The notes under the pieces are model-generated. The model was not told where the DNA came from and did not search any database. It saw only the letters and a program-made list of their open reading frames with translations. From contig CAZGYO010000001.1 of assembly GCA_964530455.1 (NCBI GenBank), positions 1 through 33,478 on the forward strand: 33,478 bases of DNA. The letters are read 5' to 3'. Source of the stretch: an uncultured Victivallales bacterium (GTDB taxonomy: Bacteria > Verrucomicrobiota > Lentisphaeria > Victivallales > CAZGYO01). This document shows, piece by piece, positions 20,960-33,478 of the stretch (within the stretch, counting starts at the first letter, position 1; every line of letters begins with the position of its first letter). Position numbers and translations under genes: made by a program.

Positions 20960-22486
20960 CTATCGCTGTATTTTCAACCACCACTTCAGGAGTTTGGCGA
21001 GAGTCGGTGTAAGCCGGGTTTTCTTGTATAAACCGGCTACTCTCTTTATGGCTTCGGCCTGCGTCGGATAAGGATGAATGACGTTCCCCATTTTTGCCAG
21101 TCCGGTTCCCGTTACCATTGCTGTGGTGATTTCGCTGATCATTTCTCCGGCATGTGCGGAGACAATTGTCGCGCCGAGAATTTTATCCGAGCCCTTTTTT
21201 ACCATTACCTTGACAAAACCATTGCCTTCGCCGTCAGCCAATGCCCTGTCGTTTTCCGACATATCAAATTTGAAAAATTCGACATCCAGCCCTTTTTCGT
21301 CAGCTTCTTGTTTATACATGCCTACGTGAGCGATTTCAGGGTCGGTATATGTGCACCACGACATCACGAGTGAACTGAGTTTTTTGCGTCCTTTGAACAA
21401 CGCATTCTGGATTACGATCTGTGCCGCGGCATCGGCGGCATGGGTGAATTTCCACGCCATACAGCAATCTCCGGCTGCATAAATCCGCTTGTTACTCGTG
21501 CGAAGATTGTCGTTCACTATAACTCCCTTGCGTTGGTCATAATCGACTCCGGCAGTATCCAGTCCGATGTTCTCAACGTTCGGAACGCGTCCGGCGCCGA
21601 TCAGTATTTCATCTGCCTCGATAGCGTGATTTTCTCCATTGACTTCGATGAATACTTTTTTTCTTCCCGACCCGATACATTCAACTTTCAACGTCTTTGC
21701 GTGTAAAAACACACGAATGCCTTCCTTCTGAAAAACATCCGCCAGTATATTTGATGCCTCCGCATCCTCATGGGGTAGAAAACGTCTTTTTTGAATAATT
21801 GTGACTTCGGATCCCAGGCGGTGGAAAGCCTGAGCTAATTCGCAGCCGATAGGCCCGCCACCGACAACCACCAGGTGTTCCGGCAGACTGGTCAGGTTAA
21901 ATACTGTTTCATTGGTCAGGAAACCCGCATCTTCAAGTCCCGGAATATCAGGTTTAAGTGCCCGTGCGCCCGTAGCGATTACAGCTTTGCGGAAACGCAA
22001 AGTTTTCCCGTCAACTTCGACCGTGTTACGGCTCTTGAAAACACCCTTTCCGAGAAAAACATCCACTCCGAGTTCAGAATAGCGCTTGACTGAGTCATTC
22101 TTGCTGATTTCCGCCCTTATGCGCCTTAATCGCTCCATCACTTTCGGAAAATCTTCTTTGCGAACTTCGCAGCCGCTCAGCCCGAAATCGGCCGCATTAC
22201 GCATTTCCGCCGCGAGCCGTGCGGGACGAATCAGGCTTTTTGATGGCACGCAGCCGACGTTTAGGCAGTCTCCTCCCATCAGATTCTCTTCGATCAGGGC
22301 GACTTTTCCCCCAAGTGAAGCGGTGGCTATAGCGGAAATCAATCCTGCGGTACCGGCACCCACAGCCACCATGTTGTACATCGGTTCAGGATCAGGATTC
22401 CGCCAATTTTCCGGATGCACATTTTCCAGAAGTTCACGGTTGTACTTATCATCAGGACTTAATTCAAGTTGCCGTTCACTCATCAT
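20960..22486 (-). CDS. MerA-like class I pyridine nucleotide-disulfide oxidoreductase (FAD)
   Basis: GAGTAGL FAD fold, redox-active GGDCLNVGCVPSK, second Rossmann VVVGGGPIGCE, and the C-terminal HPYPTQAE dimerisation/active-site His-Glu. No NmerA domain or C-terminal CC pair, so not a bona fide mercuric reductase. Confidence 0.85.
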   Translation of the reverse strand: MMSERQLELSPDDKYNRELLENVHPENWRNPDPEPMYNMVAVGAGTAGLISAIATASLGGKVALIEENLMGGDCLNVGCVPSKSLIRPARLAAEMRNAADFGLSGCEVRKEDFPKVMERLRRIRAEISKNDSVKRYSELGVDVFLGKGVFKSRNTVEVDGKTLRFRKAVIATGARALKPDIPGLEDAGFLTNETVFNLTSLPEHLVVVGGGPIGCELAQAFHRLGSEVTIIQKRRFLPHEDAEASNILADVFQKEGIRVFLHAKTLKVECIGSGRKKVFIEVNGENHAIEADEILIGAGRVPNVENIGLDTAGVDYDQRKGVIVNDNLRTSNKRIYAAGDCCMAWKFTHAADAAAQIVIQNALFKGRKKLSSLVMSWCTYTDPEIAHVGMYKQEADEKGLDVEFFKFDMSENDRALADGEGNGFVKVMVKKGSDKILGATIVSAHAGEMISEITTAMVTGTGLAKMGNVIHPYPTQAEAIKRVAGLYKKTRLTPTLAKLLKWWLKIQR

Positions 22487-23178
22487 TGCTCCTTATCATT
22501 TTCAGATTGATCATGTTCATCATTAAGTTTACTTCGGGCTTTTTTGACAATTACCGTAAGGATCAAGATAATCAAAGCAACTATTCCTACCAGTGTCCAG
22601 GGAATTCGACCTTCTTCTATGGCGGTAGTGATGGCATCTGTTCCTACCACGTACAGAATTGTTCCCGGAAGCATGCACAGGAAAGACCAGCCGACATAGG
22701 TGCGGAACGGAACCCCGGTAAGGCCGAAGCCGTAATTGAGCAGATTAAAAGGAAAGAGAGGGACAAGGCGGGTTATAGCCACGATTATTGCGCCATGCTT
22801 TTTTGTCAAATCATCAAGTTTTTTAAATTTTCCCCTTTTGCGCATATAAGCCGAAAGTGACTCTCTTGCAAAATATCGTGAGATAAGAAAGCATAGCGCA
22901 GCGCCTGTAGTCGCCCCGAAGATAACTGTAATTGTTCCTATGACAGATCCGAAAAGCGCTCCCGCGGCGATGGTCAGGGCGGAACCCGGGATTGCCAGCA
23001 CGGTTGCCAGGGCATATATCCCGGCAAAGATAAATGGGCCCCAGACTCCCTGTTTGCCGATCCATTCCTTCAGTTCTCCCAACCGTTCACCAAGTCCGAA
23101 AGTGCGGGAAAGAACGATCAGTGCAATCACTGCGGTTAACAGTACCAGCGGTTTAATCCATTTTTTCATCTTGTTCAT
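22483..23178 (-). CDS. TVP38/TMEM64 (DedA/SNARE-associated) family membrane protein
   Basis: 231 aa with AGALFGSVIGTITVIFGATTGAALCFLISRYFARE and RLVPLFPFNLLNYGFGLT motifs. 4-nt overlaps on both sides. Confidence 0.85.
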   Translation of the reverse strand: MNKMKKWIKPLVLLTAVIALIVLSRTFGLGERLGELKEWIGKQGVWGPFIFAGIYALATVLAIPGSALTIAAGALFGSVIGTITVIFGATTGAALCFLISRYFARESLSAYMRKRGKFKKLDDLTKKHGAIIVAITRLVPLFPFNLLNYGFGLTGVPFRTYVGWSFLCMLPGTILYVVGTDAITTAIEEGRIPWTLVGIVALIILILTVIVKKARSKLNDEHDQSENDKEQ

Positions 23179-23984
23179 TTATAAGATTTATTACGGGAAA
23201 AAGGAGTCGTCATCATACCCCTTAGGGTCTGGAAACGGGGAAGACTATATTTGCCAAGCCCGATTTCAATGGCGGCGAGATCCGTGCGGCGGCGGAAACT
23301 GTTGAAGATACGGTCCCAGACGGAAAGCAAAGAAGTGTAGTTTGAATCGGTTTCGATCTGTATGCGCGAATGATGGACTTTATGCATAGCCGGCGTGACC
23401 AGAAATATACGCAGCCAGCGGTCGAATCGTTCAGGAAGTGCAATGTTAGCATGATGAAAATCAACCACAAAGCCCATAAGCCAGCCGTAAAGCAGCAACT
23501 CCCATAGATATAGTCCCAGCAGAAAAACAAGGGGAATTGGCAATATCGAGGAAAATATAATTTCACCGGGATGGAAGCGGCGGGCACTGGAAACATCCAT
23601 CCAGGGGTCGGAATGGTGCATCCGATGGAATCGCCACAGGAAAAGAATGCGATGGTTGGCCCGATGCCACCAGTATGTCCAGATATCAAGCAGCATAATG
23701 GCCAGAAAGGTATGCAGCCAAATCGGTAAGGCGAAGCGATGAAGCAGACCGAATTTTATCTCAACCGACCTGCCTGCCGCCAGTTTCCACAGTATCAGGA
23801 AACAGATTCCGATCAGCGCGGCATTCAACAGAGCAAAACCAATATTACGTGCCAGGTGCAGGTAGCGCCGCCCCGTTTCCCCCCTGAAAAAAGGGAAGGG
23901 CTGAATGCTCTCCCATCCCAGAAACAGCAAAAAAGCAAGCAGAGCCGCTATATTCCACACTGTTGTTTCATTGAACCAAATCAT
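23175..23984 (-). CDS. Fatty-acid hydroxylase / sterol desaturase superfamily membrane protein
   Basis: Three His boxes (HRANH, HRMHH, HKVHH) in a polytopic protein. I place the start at ATG 23984 (MIWFNETT...) because the longer ORF-track N-terminus overlaps dsbD. Confidence 0.8.
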   Translation of the reverse strand: MIWFNETTVWNIAALLAFLLFLGWESIQPFPFFRGETGRRYLHLARNIGFALLNAALIGICFLILWKLAAGRSVEIKFGLLHRFALPIWLHTFLAIMLLDIWTYWWHRANHRILFLWRFHRMHHSDPWMDVSSARRFHPGEIIFSSILPIPLVFLLGLYLWELLLYGWLMGFVVDFHHANIALPERFDRWLRIFLVTPAMHKVHHSRIQIETDSNYTSLLSVWDRIFNSFRRRTDLAAIEIGLGKYSLPRFQTLRGMMTTPFSRNKSYK

Positions 23985-25860
23985 TCGTCGGCGACCTCTT
24001 CTTTTTTGTGTTCTGCCCGGACAGTATTTTTGGCATGATGGACAGGAATTCATTCGGTGGAAGAAAGCCAGTGACTCGGGAATTTTGCAGTTCATCGCCA
24101 TTGGCATCAAGAAAGACAAGCGTCGGAACCCCTTGCACACCGAAGCGTTCCACTACCGCACGGTTTTCCGCATTGTCATCATGAGTCATATCCACTTTCA
24201 AACGAACATACCCGCCCAGTGCAGCCATAACATCCGGATGGCTGAACGTCTCCCTTTCAAGTTCATGACAAGGAATACACCAGTCGGCATAGAAGTCCAG
24301 GACGACCGGCTTCCTGTTCGTTCGAGCAATATCCAGTAATTCGGGTTGGTATGACTGCCATTCCAATTGTGTGCGCGGCATGGCGACAATCTGCCATACC
24401 CCGTACAAAATAGCAGCTATCCCCAGCGCATATTTTAAATTGCGGAATCCGCGTTTTCCATTGCCGGTTTTTTCAATGAATCCGAGATAAACTCCGCCTA
24501 TAATTGCCGTGATAAGCGGAATCCATTGGACGAACCCCGGCATGATTGCAAGTGCCAGATAAAATAAACCGACTCCAAGCAATATGACTCCGAATACCTT
24601 TTTGACCCATATCATCCAGGCACCCGATTTAGGTAATTTCTGCAGCAGTCCGGAAAATGTTCCCAGTACCAGATATGGCGCTCCCAATCCCATTGAAAGT
24701 ACGAAAAACGCACCAAATCCGAACCATGGGTTACCCCGTGCTCCAACGAGAGCGAGTAAAGCTATAATGGGGGGACCAATGCAGGGGGCGGCGAATATGC
24801 CGACCAGAAGCCCGGATAAGTATACTCCGGCAAAACCGGTCGTCGTTGTGCCGCCGAGGCGGTTCAGCAGTCTGGATGGGGGACGAAATTCGTAAAGACC
24901 AAACATACTCAATGCCATGGCTCCCAATAAAAGTCCGATTGCGACCAGTACCCAGGTGTTTTGCATTACCCCCCCGAACATACCGCCGGTCAAGGCAGCC
25001 AGCGTTCCAAGGATACTGTACATAGTCCCGATCCCGAGTACATAAATCAGAGCCTTTAGGAAAACACCAACGGTTCGTGACTTATTCTGCCCTCCGAAAA
25101 TCGAGACCGTAACTGATAACATGGGATAGACACATGGAGTCAGATTCAATGCAAGCCCTGTCAGAAACATTGCCAGCAGGGTAAGAAACAAACTGCTACC
25201 ACCGAAAACCTGGTTCAGTTCATCTACTGATGATACTGCAGCGTTTTCGATTGGGGAAAGAGTACGAAACCACTTTTCATTGACGGCAGTGACAGAGGTT
25301 CCTTTTGTAACCACCTCGACAGGGATATTTACCGCCAGAGTTGACGGTGCCAGACAAACCTGATCATCGCAGGCCTGAACCGTCAACTCGCCTTTTATTA
25401 CATATTGACCGGGTATAAGATCCGCCGCGGTGGAAATGGTGAACAGGATCGGCGTTTCGCCGTCATACACTGCCAGAGTATCGCCTGCGAATTCAATTTG
25501 CTTTGCAGACGGGTGGTCAATCCTGCCTATTTCAATTCCTGATTGCGGTTTCAGACTCAGAATAGTACCAACGAGATAATCAAACGAAGGCTGCGCCGCC
25601 TGCATGTGCCAACCCGGCTGAATATCAAGAACTACTGCCGCCTGGAACGAAGAACCCGCCGGCACCCGGTCAACAGAAAGAAAATAACGGACATTCATAC
25701 GCGACGCGCTGTCAGTTAACACCGCAGTTTCCTGGGCTACGACAGGCGTCAACAGAATGATACTCAGTAGCGTCAATACCAAGAAGTTCCAAACACCTTT
25801 TTCAGTAGTCTTTTTCACAGTTTTTTTAAACATAGATCCCTTCCTGTTTTCCGCAGCCAT
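23968..25860 (-). CDS. dsbD: Thiol:disulfide interchange protein DsbD
   Basis: Signal peptide, N-terminal DsbD-alpha-like domain, central DsbD/CcdA transmembrane core (NLTPCVYP ... FAAPCIGP) and C-terminal thioredoxin domain with WCIPCH. Confidence 0.9.
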   Translation of the reverse strand: MAAENRKGSMFKKTVKKTTEKGVWNFLVLTLLSIILLTPVVAQETAVLTDSASRMNVRYFLSVDRVPAGSSFQAAVVLDIQPGWHMQAAQPSFDYLVGTILSLKPQSGIEIGRIDHPSAKQIEFAGDTLAVYDGETPILFTISTAADLIPGQYVIKGELTVQACDDQVCLAPSTLAVNIPVEVVTKGTSVTAVNEKWFRTLSPIENAAVSSVDELNQVFGGSSLFLTLLAMFLTGLALNLTPCVYPMLSVTVSIFGGQNKSRTVGVFLKALIYVLGIGTMYSILGTLAALTGGMFGGVMQNTWVLVAIGLLLGAMALSMFGLYEFRPPSRLLNRLGGTTTTGFAGVYLSGLLVGIFAAPCIGPPIIALLALVGARGNPWFGFGAFFVLSMGLGAPYLVLGTFSGLLQKLPKSGAWMIWVKKVFGVILLGVGLFYLALAIMPGFVQWIPLITAIIGGVYLGFIEKTGNGKRGFRNLKYALGIAAILYGVWQIVAMPRTQLEWQSYQPELLDIARTNRKPVVLDFYADWCIPCHELERETFSHPDVMAALGGYVRLKVDMTHDDNAENRAVVERFGVQGVPTLVFLDANGDELQNSRVTGFLPPNEFLSIMPKILSGQNTKKKRSPTNDLVQ

Positions 25861-25896: not shown

Positions 25897-27059
25897 TTAT
25901 ATACATTCACGAAGACGATTCACCGCCCGTGAGACGCAGTTTGCTACTCGTCGGCAATCCTCTGCAGTGGTCGGATATCCTGTTGAGAAGCGAACGGCTC
26001 CCGTCGCCCGCTCGACAGGTATTCCCATTGCTTTCAATACGGGGGATATAGTTGTTTCACCGGCATGGCAGGCCGAGCCCCTGCCGAAGCGGCTACATCC
26101 TTCCGTAAGGCTTCCAGAAGAAGGTGTGCATCCACACCGAGGAAGCTGATGTTCAACGTATTTGGCAGACACTCTGCCTGATATCCGTTCACTTGTGTCT
26201 CCGGAATGGAAGCTGTCAACAGTTCCAGAAGCAGGCTGGTAACGGATTTCAGGTGTGCTGCGATTTTATCACCGTCCCGCCGTACAATTTCACAGGCGGC
26301 CCCCAGACCGACAATTTCGAGTACGTTTTCGGTGCCGGCGCGGCAGCCGTTCTCATGTCCGGCACCGTGCATAAGCGGTTCGATCGGCGTACCGCACCGA
26401 ATGTAGAGAGCGCCGATACCCTTCGGTGCGTAGACCTTGTGTCCGGCGACGCTGAGCAAATCCACTCCCAGTGCATCAACTCTGACCGGAATTTTCCCGA
26501 CGGATTGAGCGGCGTCGGTATGCATCAATGCTCCGTGTGCATGCGCGATATCCGCCAATGCACGGATCGGACCGATCGTGCCGGTTTCGTTATTCGCATG
26601 CATGATGCTGACAATAACGGTACGGTTCGTAATTTTTTGGCGAAGAGCATCCGGATCGACTCGTCCGTTTCCGTCGACCGGCAGGTATGTGATATCGAAT
26701 CCGTTTCGCGACAGCCATCCACACACCTGGAGTACGGCCGGATGTTCCGTGACCGACGTGATAATGTGATTCCCGCGATGCTGGCAAGCACGGGCCACTC
26801 CCTTGAGCGCATGGTTGTTGGATTCGGTTCCACCGCTTGTAAAGACAATCTCTTCCGGTGTCGCTCCAAGCAATTTCGCCACCTGATTGCGTGCGTGGGA
26901 AACAGCATCGCGCATCACGTACCCATAAATATGGTTGCTCGAGGGATTCCCAAAATGTTCCTCGAGAAACGGACGCATAGCTTCGATTACCTCGGGCACA
27001 AGCGGTGTCGTGGCATTGTAATCGAAATAAACCGGCTTTTCTTCAGTTAGCATTTTCAA
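25897..27059 (-). pseudogene. NifS/IscS-type cysteine desulfurase interrupted by a 1-nt frameshift (or assembly error)
   Basis: 26034-27059 encodes the PLP domain (TSGGTESNN, SVAGHKVYAPKGIG). The catalytic loop GSACHAGETT and C-terminus (AVRFSTGY...) continue in another frame (25897-26172). The frames meet at the C4 run 26078-26081 (G4 on the coding strand). Confidence 0.8.
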
Positions 27060-28172: not shown

Positions 28173-29291
28173 TTATCGACCGCCCCGAAATTCGGCACTG
28201 AAGAATAATTTTTCGATTTTTGTTTTCAGATCATCGCGGATATTTCTGAATACTTTTATTCTCTCATTTTTGTTATTTACAGCAACTGGGTCATCAAAGA
28301 GCCATGATTGACATATTACCGCAGTCGGCAGATTGATGCATATTTCTTCAGAGCAGAGAGTAATAACCATATCAACTTTTCCGAGAGGAATATCTGTTAA
28401 TCTTTTCGGATGATGTCCGGAAATATCAATACCGATTTCCTTCATTACTTCAACTGCGATGGGATTGATTTTATCAGCAGGAGCTGATCCTGCACTAAAT
28501 ACATCAATTTTATCGGAGAAAATATGTTTGGCCAGGCCTTCTGCCATTTGGCTTCTTGCTGAATTCTGGACACACAGAAATACAATGCACTTTGGAACAC
28601 CAGGGGACTCATCGGGAAGAGAGTGAGTGTGTGAAATTTGTCTGCCCGTTGCTAAATAGCATGTGTATTCACAAATGTTTTTAGCATGATCGCCGATTCT
28701 TTCAGCACAACTGATAATAGTCATGATTCTGGAGACCTCGGAGAAATTATCGCAGCCATTTCTCATTTTTTCCATTAAGCTCCTAAATAATTGTGCATGA
28801 AAAGCGTCAATCTGGCGGTCTTTAAGAATAATATTAACCGCTTCCTCATTATCTGATTTGAGGAATGCTGATATCGAATAAGAGACGTTGTTCAAAACTT
28901 CTTTCAGCATCATTTTTAAATCAGGTTCGTCCACTTTATAATCGGTATTCTGGTGCAGTTCAACTGACCTCTCCGCAATACAAACTAAAAGGTCTGCGAT
29001 TCTTTCGAGGTCGGTAACTGCTTTCTGCACAGAAACGATAAAGCGCAGATCGGTGCCTAAAGGCTGTCTGCGGGCAATTACATTTATGCACTGTCTGTCA
29101 ATCTGAAGCTCCATCCGGTCAACTTCATCGTCTTTACTTATCGCCTGATGAGCACTGTTTAAGCTGCCTTCAAAAAGAGCTGATAAGCAATTATTTCCAA
29201 TTTCCTGAATCAGTGCCTCCATCGAGTAAACAATATTCTTTATGACCAGAAGCTCATTTTCATATTCTCTGTCAGTATGTTTGTCATTCAT
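28173..29291 (-). CDS. phoU: PhoU (two PhoU repeats) fused to a C-terminal ArsC/low-molecular-weight phosphatase domain
   Basis: Residues about 1-225: PhoU (DDEVDRMELQIDRQC...DLRFIVSVQKAVTDLERIADL...AERIGDHAKNICEY). Residues about 235-372: LMWP/ArsC fold with the CX5R(S) loop CVQNSARS, VFSAGS, and VITLCSEEIC...LFDDP resembling thioredoxin-coupled ArsC. Confidence 0.85.
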   Translation of the reverse strand: MNDKHTDREYENELLVIKNIVYSMEALIQEIGNNCLSALFEGSLNSAHQAISKDDEVDRMELQIDRQCINVIARRQPLGTDLRFIVSVQKAVTDLERIADLLVCIAERSVELHQNTDYKVDEPDLKMMLKEVLNNVSYSISAFLKSDNEEAVNIILKDRQIDAFHAQLFRSLMEKMRNGCDNFSEVSRIMTIISCAERIGDHAKNICEYTCYLATGRQISHTHSLPDESPGVPKCIVFLCVQNSARSQMAEGLAKHIFSDKIDVFSAGSAPADKINPIAVEVMKEIGIDISGHHPKRLTDIPLGKVDMVITLCSEEICINLPTAVICQSWLFDDPVAVNNKNERIKVFRNIRDDLKTKIEKLFFSAEFRGGR

Positions 29292-30104: not shown

Positions 30105-31328
30105 TCATTTATCTAAGCGGTTCTGTGATTTATTTCTTATTGTGATTGCCACAGCATTGAAACATAGCAGAACGGTCAGTAACACAATAATTCCCCCTGC
30201 AGCAAGGTCGTGAAATTCTTTCTGCGGCCTTTGTGCCCAGTTATATATCTGCAAAGGCATGGCAGTGAAATCATCCATTAAATTCGCCGGAGCATTGGAA
30301 ATAAAAACAATTCCGGCAATCATCAGTAAAGGAGCTGCCTCGCCCACTGCTCTGCTTACTGCGAGGATGGTTCCGGTCATTACAGTCGGCAGAGCAGATG
30401 GCAGAACGACATGCCGCACAGTTTGCCAACGGGTTAACCCCAGTCCCCAGGCAGCTTCCCTCAAATTGTATGGTACAGCCCTCAAGGCTTCCTGTGTTGA
30501 AATAATTATAACCGGCAGAATTACCAGCATGAGAGTTAAAGCGCCGGTAAGAACGCCGCGCCCCAAGGGGAGTCTGAAATAATACCAGTTTCGTTTACTG
30601 ATGCGTCCCGGGGTGTCATATATACGAATAGACCTCAGCCCGGTTTTCTCATTTTCAGGCCATTCTTCATCTTCGCCTATAACATTCAATTTTATAATTT
30701 TTTCTGATGAATCGATAGCATTGATACCCTGAACGAGGGTGGTTTCAGGGCTTCCGCCGCTTTTAACGGGCACAAGAAAAGCCTGATCCGCTTCACTGTA
30801 GAATTGATCAAAATACTCAACTCCCATCTCAAACACCGGACGACTTGTTTTACCGAAAATTCCAAACATTGAAACAAACAGTGTAATCCCTATGATGCCG
30901 TAAACCACCGAAGGAACTCCAGCGAGATTGGTTATGTTAAGCTGAATAAAGCCATGCAGTTTTTTCAACAGAAAATTACAAGGCGGGAATTCCTCTAATA
31001 TGATTGCGGTTGCCACGCCCGCAGGCAAGGCAAAAACCGGGACAAGGAGAAGCAGCCAGATACTACCCATCATTGCCGGGAAGAAACCTGACAATTCCGG
31101 ATTCGGATGAGGCGGAGCCGTGAGAAATGTATATGACAATTCTTTTACTCCGAGTCCCATCAGCGTCAAGATTAAAAACGCCAGCAGCACAACACTGAAA
31201 ACGGCACTGCACAAACATAAGCCCTTAAATACAGCATTGTTTCTGTTGCGTCTGGCTGGTGATATGATAATTCCGCTCCGTTTCTCAGGATCGGAAAGAA
31301 TTTCCGGCATATTGAAATCCTGACTCAT
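30105..31328 (-). CDS. pstA: Phosphate ABC transporter permease PstA (long form with an insertion of about 100 aa)
   Basis: C-terminal [14 protein letters not shown]...PLLMIAG permease signature. The ATG at 31328 forms an ATGA overlap with the pstC stop, and the ORF-track 31379 start is probably too long. Confidence 0.88.
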
Positions 31329-32278
31329 TGGTAAACCTCTCTGAAACGCCTGCGGATTACAGCACCGGTCATGGTGCATCCGAAGGTCAGCAGGAAAAGC
31401 ATGAAAGCTACTGCATACATTGAAAAGTATTCAACTCCGTAATTGGAAACATCACCTAATGCCATCTGCACCATAAAGCCGGTCATTGTCTGAATTTCCT
31501 TCCCTGCATTGAGTGTCATTTTAGGCGTATTGCCAGCCGCAAGCGCAACAATCATCGTTTCTCCCACGGCTCTTGCCGCAGCCAGCAGAATAGAAGATAT
31601 GATTCCGGATAAAGCTGCCGGCAGAAGTACCTTGAAAGATGTTTCATAACGTGTCGCGCCGAGTCCGAGAGCTCCTTCACGCAACTGAACAGGAACCGCT
31701 TTTAATGCATCCTCGGAAAGAGAGGTTATTATCGGCAGGATGAGAATTCCCACCGCAATCCCGGCAGAAAGTGCATTGTATGAACCTATACCTTCATAAA
31801 AGAATTTCATTCCGGGCGTAAATACCGTCAGTGCGAGAAACCCGTATACTACGGTCGGAATGCCTGCTAAAACTTCCAGGGCGGGCTTGATAATATTCCT
31901 GACTTTGGGGTGTGCATATTCACTGAGATAAACTGATGTCAGAATTCCGACAGGAACAGCTATCAACAATGCGACAGCGGCAACAAGAAAAGTACCGCAG
32001 ACCAACGGCCATATTCCGAAATGTTTTTTATATCCCAGCAACGGATTCCACTGTGTCCCTGAGAAGAATTCAGCAATCGACACTTCATCCTGCTGGAAAA
32101 AATGTATTGATTCCTTTCCCAGAACCACAATAATAATCAGGGTGAGAAAAACGGAAAAGGTCGTAACAGCTCCCATTCCGGATAAAAGCCCGGTCTCACA
32201 AATTTTCTGTCTTAAACGGGACCGGGCGCTGAAATAAACAGGAAACCATTGATTGTTATTTTTCTTATTTTGCGTCAT
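31325..32278 (-). CDS. pstC: Phosphate ABC transporter permease PstC
   Basis: REGALGLGATRYETSFKVLLPAA... EAA-loop and six hydrophobic segments. Position between pstS and pstA. Confidence 0.92.
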   Translation of the reverse strand: MTQNKKNNNQWFPVYFSARSRLRQKICETGLLSGMGAVTTFSVFLTLIIIVVLGKESIHFFQQDEVSIAEFFSGTQWNPLLGYKKHFGIWPLVCGTFLVAAVALLIAVPVGILTSVYLSEYAHPKVRNIIKPALEVLAGIPTVVYGFLALTVFTPGMKFFYEGIGSYNALSAGIAVGILILPIITSLSEDALKAVPVQLREGALGLGATRYETSFKVLLPAALSGIISSILLAAARAVGETMIVALAAGNTPKMTLNAGKEIQTMTGFMVQMALGDVSNYGVEYFSMYAVAFMLFLLTFGCTMTGAVIRRRFREVYQ

Positions 32279-33321: not shown

Positions 33322-33446
33322 TTTTCGACTCCTTTTTTTACACATTTCGAGTTTCTTTTTATATTTATACTAATCCACTTTCAAAGATATAGAATGCACT
33401 TGTCTATTACTTAGCGTCAGTTATTAATTAGTGCATATTCGAAAAG

Positions 33447-33465
33447 GTTTTGGATATTCCAAAAC
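33447..33465. promoter_or_regulatory. Palindrome gttttgga-tat-tccaaaac upstream of pstS (operator or weak bidirectional terminator)
   Basis: 8-bp perfect inverted repeat with flanking A/T runs, about 125 nt upstream of the pstS ATG. Confidence 0.2.
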
Positions 33466-33478
33466 TTTTAGAATCTGC

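Follow-up and report, generated by a model that had tools for sequence, protein, structure and literature searches.

The stretch of DNA analysed here, hereafter the window, comprises 33,478 nucleotides and forms contig C1 of a metagenome-assembled genome (MAG) of an uncultured Victivallales bacterium (2.64 Mb, 444 contigs, 89% complete). It carries a phosphate transport cassette in the order pstS, pstC, pstA and pstB, directly followed by a gene in which phoU is joined to an arsenate reductase-like (arsC) sequence, here called phoU~arsC (Table 1). The initial annotation had proposed a covalent fusion of PhoU with a domain of the low-molecular-weight (LMW) phosphatase fold as the terminal gene of pstSCAB, and this was borne out, as a single open reading frame (ORF) of 372 aa occupies that position. 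Pfam analysis of the protein revealed PhoU twice (PF01895, E 3.4e-38, residues ~23-220) and LMWPc once (E 9.4e-21, residues 236-363). The ATG of the gene is situated 11 nt past the pstB stop and AAGGAGG lies upstream of it. In the window sequence neither a stop nor a frameshift separates the two halves, and the ORF contains no in-frame start codon or ribosome-binding site ahead of the second domain, near the linker. The motifs quoted in the annotation are all in place, namely the linker THSLPDESPGVP at residues 222-233, CVQNSARS at 240-247 and TLCSEEIC at 311-318. A consensus scan detected no intrinsic terminator 3' of the fusion gene. On the other side, just 133 nt precede pstS before the contig stops, and an open frame of 16 codons is cut by this border. 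A perfect 19-nt palindrome, GTTTTGGAATATCCAAAAC, is found 117 nt before pstS, at the contig edge; its form resembles that of the palindromes in front of the arsR~arsC genes that head the related cassettes described below, and it could be a candidate operator, a weak terminator or coding sequence.

Table 1. Features of the phoU~arsC cassette and head genes of related cassettes. Positions are those of the window unless a locus is named.
Feature	Position	Strand	Basis
phoU~arsC fusion gene, 372 aa	28173..29291	-	single ORF; Pfam PhoU x2 + LMWPc
PhoU module, residues 1-221, two three-helix repeats	28629..29291	-	TIGR02135, conserved columns, Foldseek
Flexible linker, residues 222-233, THSLPDESPGVP	28593..28628	-	AlphaFold2 pLDDT; family variability
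ArsC-like LMW-phosphatase-fold module, residues 234-372: P-loop C240-x5-R246-S-Q-M-A-E, C313, C318, D334-P335	28173..28592	-	alignment to pI258 and B. subtilis ArsC, conservation, Foldseek
pstB, ABC ATPase, 264 aa	29303..30097	-	Pfam ABC_tran
pstA, long form, 424 aa	30105..31379	-	TIGR00974, 222.5 bits, above cut-off
pstC, 317 aa	31325..32278	-	ORF list; 77% identity to L090 PstC
pstS, PstS-family binding protein, 348 aa	32299..33345	-	TIGR02136, 291.3 bits, above cut-off
Region 5' of pstS, ended by the contig border; palindrome GTTTTGGAATATCCAAAAC and 16-codon open frame	33346..33478	-	sequence scan
Class-I ArsR~ArsC head genes	L090:4147-4932, L092:427-1212, L093:4120-4911, L095:4388-5218, L097:3071-3871, L098:3147-3950

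The N-terminal part of the protein is a complete two-repeat PhoU, as the initial annotation had read it, and all sequence and fold tests for PhoU gave a positive result. The NCBIfam model TIGR02135 (phoU_full) scored 174.6 bits against a cut-off of 130.25, and PF01895 scored 130.3 bits in two stretches against a cut-off of 23.5. The metal-binding motifs of both repeats (D94, E96 and D100; E197, D201 and H202) are invariant or nearly so among 44 family members, the motifs reading DLERIAD and ERIGDH. In an AlphaFold2 (AF2) model of the fusion built on the 44 members, helices span residues 7-215 and make up a six-helix fold of two three-helix bundles, and Foldseek comparison of this half with the PDB gave template modelling (TM) scores of 0.92-0.96 to 1t72, 4q25 and 2i0m. 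The two repeats, the D/E-xxx-D motifs, the six-helix fold and the place after pstB are shared with the canonical PhoU of E. coli and P. aeruginosa (TIGR02135, PF01895; 4Q25, 1T72), from which the fusion differs by an extra C-terminal ArsC-type domain of 140 aa. From work in E. coli, PhoU is known to attach to PstB and to the PhoR PAS domain and to hold back Pst transport as well as the Pho response. By analogy, we infer that the PhoU part of the fusion docks on PstB/PhoR; a PhoB-like regulator is encoded on contig C182 of the same MAG (242.9 bits).

The C-terminal part is most closely related to arsenate reductases. Alignment to the ArsC proteins of S. aureus pI258 and B. subtilis showed that C240, N243 and R246 correspond to Cys10, Asn13 and Arg16 of pI258 ArsC, D334-P335 to Asp105-Pro106, and E251, S266 and D289 to Glu21, Ser36 and Asp65 of the K+ site. 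C313 and C318 align with Cys82 and Cys89, although the intervening loop is two residues shorter (CX4C vs CX6C); the annotation had indeed placed this cysteine pair like that of thioredoxin-coupled ArsC, and on proper alignment all activity-critical residues of pI258 ArsC are present. The pI258-type enzyme reduces arsenate by a relay from Cys10 to Cys82 to Cys89 and is reset by thioredoxin. The alignment E-value was 5e-23 for ArsC and about 1e-5 to 5e-4 for protein tyrosine phosphatases (PTPs) and YwlE. In the Foldseek search of the PDB, the C-terminal half matched pI258 ArsC with TM scores of 0.85-0.89 at 40-41% identity, as compared with 0.62-0.75 at 18-22% identity for LMW-PTP, YwlE and Wzb, and no solved chain spanned both halves of the fusion. 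Membership in the LMW protein tyrosine/arginine phosphatases accordingly failed, PTPs being the nearest relatives neither in sequence nor in fold, and glutaredoxin-coupled ArsC (PF03960, R773 type) gave no match in the fusion protein. Relative to pI258 ArsC (1LJL), B. subtilis ArsC (1JL3) and TIGR02691, the domain thus retains ~40% identity, the fold, RSQMAEG, the Cys triad, Asp105 and the K+ site, but it is not free-standing, Ala replaces Cys15, and it belongs to a pst rather than an ars operon. It also scores under the equivalog cut-offs: 100.9 bits against 174.3 for TIGR02691 and ~100 against 158 for TIGR02689, both at residues 234-362, and 103.1 against 215 for NF010053. Given these scores and the shortened cysteine loop, we would name the domain ArsC-like and would not file it in the pI258 equivalog; it is apparently of the thioredoxin-coupled ArsC type and is predicted to be catalytically competent.

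Mean predicted local distance difference test (pLDDT) of the AF2 model was 92.1, with both domains above 90 and linker residues 222-229 alone below 50, and the predicted TM score (pTM) was 0.68. The model indicates two well-folded domains that would have no fixed mutual orientation, that is, a tethered module. The disordered 8-12 residues of the linker vary in sequence and length across the fusion family. A fixed inter-domain interface was considered and found unsupported by the model.

A homolog search in 5.8 billion proteins was then evaluated for its best 120 clusters. The survey of domain architecture (PF01895 plus PF01451) that the initial annotation had called for gave the same answer throughout: all 120 contain the uninterrupted two-domain architecture, with a length of 330-376 aa and the linker in the same place, the sequence between the domains being as unbroken in these homologs as in the window. 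The clusters were drawn from NCBI, JGI, ENA and Logan assemblies, the named sources among them being Pontiellaceae, Desulfobacteraceae, Myxococcales, Deltaproteobacteria and Burkholderiales, and the database label of every one is only 'phosphate signaling complex protein PhoU'. In contigs representing one genome per species, full-length fusions were found in Phycisphaerae, Planctomycetaceae, Rhodospirillaceae, Burkholderiales, Leptospira, one betaproteobacterium and one deltaproteobacterium. An exhaustive HMMER search of 1.84 billion 50%-identity representatives placed about 30 distinct representatives of full-length PhoU~LMWP clusters in the 150 top matches. Wherever upstream sequence is preserved in a related locus, the fusion gene follows pstB. 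Some of the matching proteins may be built differently: P0135 (389 aa) has its best PhoU match at residues 179-384, in the C-terminal half, and a second matching stretch elsewhere that may be an LMWP domain placed in reverse order, while several of P0140-P0144 (281-303 aa) match in two stretches, one of which is the LMWP domain, and some of these may be tandem LMWP-LMWP proteins.

The catalytic positions are strongly conserved in the 120 close homologs: C240 in 118, N243 in 119, R246 in 118, S247 and Q248 in all 120, C313 in 117, W330 in 119, D334 in 116 and P335 in 117. C318 is kept in 99, and another 14 have a Cys one position earlier; D334, the counterpart of the general acid Asp105, its neighbour P335, and N243, E251, S266 and D289, which match the K+ site when Asn13 is counted to it, are each at least 96% conserved. 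When 127 fusions were compared, the resolving-cysteine loop was CX4C in 102 and CX3C in 14, and all five catalytic positions were retained in 110. The wider superfamily, in which some proteins of the same two-domain plan can be aligned end to end at 28-36% identity, is mixed. Some of its members carry the full catalytic set, while in many others substitutions have removed the Arg, the nucleophilic Cys or resolving cysteines; the window protein and its close clade differ from these degenerate proteins in keeping the whole set.

In a tree of the LMWP half all fusions formed one group (Shimodaira-Hasegawa approximate likelihood-ratio test, SH-aLRT, 85), the sole 'standalone' row inside it being a contig-truncated fusion. 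The sister of this group (SH-aLRT 97) consists of free or otherwise-fused ArsC-like proteins sharing the CX4C loop and the CVANSARSQMAEG P-loop. Modules of the glyoxalase (ArsI-like), GNAT (ArsN-like) and ArsA kinds are fused or directly contiguous with members of the sister clade, which marks the latter as bona fide ars-locus reductases. The tree indicates that the ArsC-like domain of the fusion is descended from arsenate reductases of ars operons. A PhoU-half tree constrained to fusion monophyly was not rejected (approximately unbiased test, p-AU 0.84) and scored better than a quick free search. The trees of both halves are thus compatible with one fusion event and its later spread.

The cassette is foreign to its host. 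Two pst operons are present in the MAG, the window cassette and an operon on contig C52 that ends in a plain PhoU of 223 aa. The window Pst proteins were compared with those of a Pontiellaceae (Kiritimatiellota, L090), a Desulfobacteraceae MAG and the C52 operon of the same genome, with identities, in this order, of 74%, 67% and 34% for PstS, 77%, 73% and 38% for PstC, 68% (to a protein of 407 aa), 61% and 37% for PstA, and 82%, 74% and 61% for PstB. These cross-phylum identities, set against those to the genome's own operon, argue that the whole five-gene pstSCAB-phoU~arsC cassette was acquired horizontally across phyla. The housekeeping seryl-tRNA synthetase of the host is 66-72% identical to Lentisphaerota proteins. 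Guanine-cytosine content is 43.5% in the cassette and 39.6% in the fusion gene, as compared with 52.3% in the genome, 51.6% in the rest of the window and 53.5% in the C52 operon. The fusion was found in none of 40 genomes of the same order; these carry plain PhoU proteins, to which the fusion in its foreign second cassette is just 25-30% identical, and standalone ArsC-like genes at 38-47% identity. Judged by these comparisons, the C52 Pst is the native, housekeeping system with its plain PhoU, and the window cassette is a second Pst system. The initial annotation had introduced PhoU as the negative regulator of Pst/PhoR; a complete PhoU in a pst operon was confirmed, but it belongs to a horizontally acquired second cassette and is not the main PhoU of the cell. 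Two generalizations were tried on other fusion-bearing genomes and rejected. The fusion is not a general replacement of standalone ArsC, most of these genomes keeping standalone ArsC-like genes, nor is it always a second PhoU, no other PhoU having been found in about 5 of 11 genomes.

Ten fusion loci with sufficient upstream sequence were surveyed for gene context and fell into two classes. Class I accounts for six of the ten (two Pontiellaceae, one Desulfobacteraceae MAG and three metagenome contigs) and has the order arsR~LMWPc, pstS, pstC, a long pstA of ~407 aa, pstB and phoU~arsC. The head gene encodes 261-276 aa, with an ArsR-type helix-turn-helix (HTH) domain carrying the Cys-x-Cys arsenite site fused to a second ArsC domain, S. 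aureus-like with CX6C, and both regulators of the class-I cassette therefore carry an ArsC-type domain. Neighbouring genes include arsA, arsR and a pair of glyceraldehyde-3-phosphate dehydrogenase and major facilitator genes (arsJ-like) in one Pontiellaceae, ArsP in two loci, and an SBF/ACR3-type carrier with another ArsR in one. Perfect palindromes stand just upstream of class-I head genes, TTCGGTATATACCGAA twice (L090 and L092) and TATATTTCTAGAAATATA once. In class II (L099, labelled Deltaproteobacteria at NCBI, L094 and the Myxococcales MAG locus L091) phoB-phoR lies upstream or ppk/ppx nearby, and Pho-box-like direct repeats, CTGTCAC-N4-CCGTCAC, precede pstS in two loci. The Phycisphaerae locus L009 is likewise without the ArsR~LMWPc head gene. 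The window Pst proteins are 61-82% identical to those of the class-I cassettes L090 and L093, and this similarity, together with the long PstA, would place the window cassette in class I, the position of a head gene falling past the contig end. When an ArsR~LMWPc head gene was sought elsewhere in the MAG by tblastn, the only matches, on C203 and C128, were small HTH genes of ArsR-like type with no relation to it.

Cassettes of this type also have an unusually long PstA, of 407-424 aa (window 30105-31379, reverse strand; L090:6962-8185) compared with about 280-300 aa. Its match to the PstA model is broken into two stretches, which points to a large insertion in the permease. Two other arrangements were observed among the loci. 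In the Phycisphaerae MAG a second, convergent pst operon lies directly downstream of the fusion gene (L009:5942-10294), while in a Solibacteraceae (L031) a divergent PhoU+LMWP gene heads a pstSCAB operon, beside a pair of pstB and plain phoU.

Concerning the arsenic-related gene content of the MAG, the only other LMWPc gene encodes a YwlE-type phosphatase (159 aa) on contig C126, next to rpiB-glyA, and glutaredoxin-type ArsC (PF03960) had no match anywhere in the MAG. The fusion is hence the only candidate arsenate reductase detected in this genome. On C128 (4107-5784) the gene for a repressor of the ArsR family, bearing a CVC motif, precedes that of an ArsP-like permease of 432 aa with a Cys-Ser-Cys motif; this is the only clear arsenical-resistance pair noticed in the MAG besides the fusion.

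Arsenate is a phosphate mimic that enters cells through phosphate transporters. We consider it somewhat probable that the protein is a bifunctional PhoU of an arsenic-linked Pst paralog, which tethers an arsenate reductase at the transporter. The PhoU part would serve the cassette's own Pst pump, and the flexible tether would keep the reductase where Pst opens to the cytoplasm. Arsenate leaking in via Pst would be met there and reduced by a disulfide relay from Cys240 to Cys313 to Cys318, with thioredoxin recycling the enzyme. For the host we infer reductase activity, a thioredoxin partner and arsenic-responsive regulation. Since its class-I relatives are headed by ArsR~ArsC and embedded in arsenic-resistance genes, the cassette is most likely an arsenic-linked phosphate importer, analogous to pst1/phoU1 of A. 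tumefaciens 5A. In that strain pst1/phoB1/phoU1 lies beside the ars1 locus, is repressed by ArsR1 and is arsenite-induced, while pst2 provides the true phosphate-stress response (PMC7965956). Moreover, pst/pho genes recur in arsenic islands (PMC3834237). The pst1 locus is likewise a second, arsenic-linked Pst, and the relatives of the window cassette are also headed by an ArsR-type regulator; however, PhoU1 and ArsC are separate proteins in A. tumefaciens 5A, whereas in the window and its relatives ArsC is fused to PhoU, and in class I to ArsR too. In other ArsC fusions (ArsR-ArsC or 'ArsRC', ACR3-ArsC, ArsC-ArsN and ArsC-glyoxalase) an ArsC-type module also resides inside a larger protein, but the partner here is PhoU, a regulator of phosphate transport and not an arsenic-resistance protein.

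A number of observations weigh against a tethered reductase. ACR3 was not found in the 89%-complete MAG, and the single PF02040 match, on C51, is a weak permease of the ArsB/NhaD superfamily whose best match is MamN (177 bits), the ArsB models scoring far below their cut-offs. With neither ACR3 nor a true ArsB in the MAG, arsenite made by the reductase has no identified exit. The regulator region upstream of the window pstS has been lost at the contig end, and for all members reductase function is predicted from sequence and fold. The fusion is the only PhoU found in about half of the 11 fusion-bearing genomes, and phoB-phoR or Pho-box-like repeats replace arsR elsewhere, so that the link to arsenic regulation is not universal. 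The ArsC-model scores below curated cut-offs point to a distinct subfamily. In addition, one or more catalytic residues are missing from 17 of the 127 close members and from the majority of the 50%-identity clusters farther away, yet the domain is kept, so that it must be of some use beyond catalysis. The arsenate link drawn in the initial annotation is therefore upheld in part: the closest cassettes are headed by ArsR~ArsC among arsenic genes, but the MAG is without recognisable ACR3 or true ArsB and many distant lineages are dead at the active site.

These many distant lineages with a dead active site make a sensory or regulatory role a serious rival to plain detoxification. The ArsC-like domain may chiefly be an input of PhoU, a possibility to which we give tentative credence, the arsenate/phosphate or thiol/disulfide state of its P-loop altering the brake on PstB or the signal to PhoR; the cell would then throttle the importer or retune the Pho response during arsenate influx. 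Domains retained with a degenerate active site, seen even in 17 of 127 in the close family, imply selection on a non-catalytic trait, and the occurrence of an ArsC-type domain on both class-I regulators, the transcriptional ArsR and the post-translational PhoU, suggests in-situ reduction sensing. An arsenite pump was not found in the MAG, one reductase per transporter would clear cytoplasmic arsenate poorly, and pI258 ArsC undergoes a large loop rearrangement on formation of the Cys82-Cys89 disulfide, structures 1lk0 and 1jfv being among the fold matches. However, the AF2 model, with its disordered linker and pTM of 0.68, offers no fixed domain interface and hence no modelled signal path, and the three-cysteine relay, Asp and K+ site kept in 110 of 127 members go beyond the needs of a pure binding sensor. 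The sensor and enzyme readings are not mutually exclusive. A rather doubtful further view is that of an arsenate-aware module moving horizontally between phyla, in which both class-I regulators use their own arsenate-reductase domain as sensor. By producing arsenite locally, ArsR~ArsC would enable a repressor that senses arsenite to answer to arsenate, while PhoU~ArsC would report arsenate flux by its thiol/disulfide or arsenic-thiolate state and would close or retune PstB.

It is improbable that the LMWP-fold domain is a protein phosphatase acting on a phospho-Tyr or phospho-Arg protein or on PhoR/PhoB, with arsenic irrelevant, and the dephosphorylation of a signalling partner envisaged in the initial annotation found little support. 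In favour of this view, LMW-PTPs have the same fold and likewise combine a CX5R(S) P-loop with a DP motif, pI258-type ArsC is known to keep weak phosphatase activity, and PhoU works in a phosphorelay setting. Nevertheless, ArsCs far outrank PTP, YwlE and Wzb in both sequence and TM score, and the domain family conserves RSQMAEG, a motif specific to ArsC, along with the K+ site and both resolving cysteines. The sister clade occurs in ars gene fusions, and the genome possesses a separate YwlE-type phosphatase. PhoR~P and PhoB~P are moreover His and Asp phosphates, which to our knowledge are not substrates of LMW-PTPs. As for a merging of adjacent phoU and arsC genes by an assembly or sequencing error, the MAG is fragmented and a NifS-like gene nearby in the window is seemingly frameshifted, but the same uninterrupted architecture and linker place in 120 of 120 best homolog clusters, from independent assemblies of several phyla, exclude an artefact for practical purposes. 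With no internal start or ribosome-binding site ahead of the second domain either, we find this explanation barely credible.

Both ArsR-ArsC and other ArsC fusions, as well as ars-linked pst loci with separate genes, are already known. In the literature, full-text searches pairing PhoU with ArsC (or arsenate reductase), LMWPc or fusion retrieved no description of the present architecture. To that extent the annotation was right in taking it for undescribed, but it is not rare, a large multi-phylum family being already in public databases as 'PhoU'. The PhoU~ArsC architecture is widespread, hidden under plain annotation, and lies within the known logic of such systems; hundreds of database entries called simply 'PhoU' conceal a second domain, and the entire arsR~arsC-pstSCAB-phoU~arsC cassette moves among Kiritimatiellota, Desulfobacterota and Lentisphaerota. 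The mechanism by which PhoU links Pst transport to Pho signalling has been an unsolved question for a long time, and coping with the entry of arsenate by phosphate transporters matters for arsenic biogeochemistry and in phosphate-starved environments. A natural, widespread fusion of PhoU with a redox-active ArsC module provides a direct experimental handle on both the PhoU mechanism and arsenate/phosphate cross-talk. It predicts arsenate reduction physically close to the Pst exit and may give a chemically switchable PhoU.

A few further observations concern other genes of the MAG. On C126 (2697-4894, locus L001) the YwlE-type LMW phosphatase gene is followed by a single 573-aa ORF resembling RpiB fused to serine hydroxymethyltransferase (GlyA); in B. 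subtilis the corresponding three functions are adjacent as ywlE-ywlF-glyA. Within the window, the reverse strand at 25897-27059 encodes a NifS/IscS-like cysteine desulfurase (Aminotran_5, E 3.8e-81) that is apparently split by a frameshift. Its 341-aa ORF ends in '...AASAGARPAM...', and an overlapping 91-aa ORF in another frame holds the expected C-terminus 'GSACHAGETTISPVLKAMG...RFSTG', which reflects either a sequencing error or a pseudogene. Finally, at 20960-23178, also on the reverse strand, a 508-aa flavin adenine dinucleotide-containing pyridine-nucleotide-disulfide oxidoreductase was found (NF004991, 783.9 bits), which is MerA-like but below the MerA cut-off. A 231-aa membrane protein, of DedA/TVP38 type by look, lies upstream with a 4-nt overlap, and a DsbD-like thiol-disulfide transporter is encoded nearby at 23968-25860.

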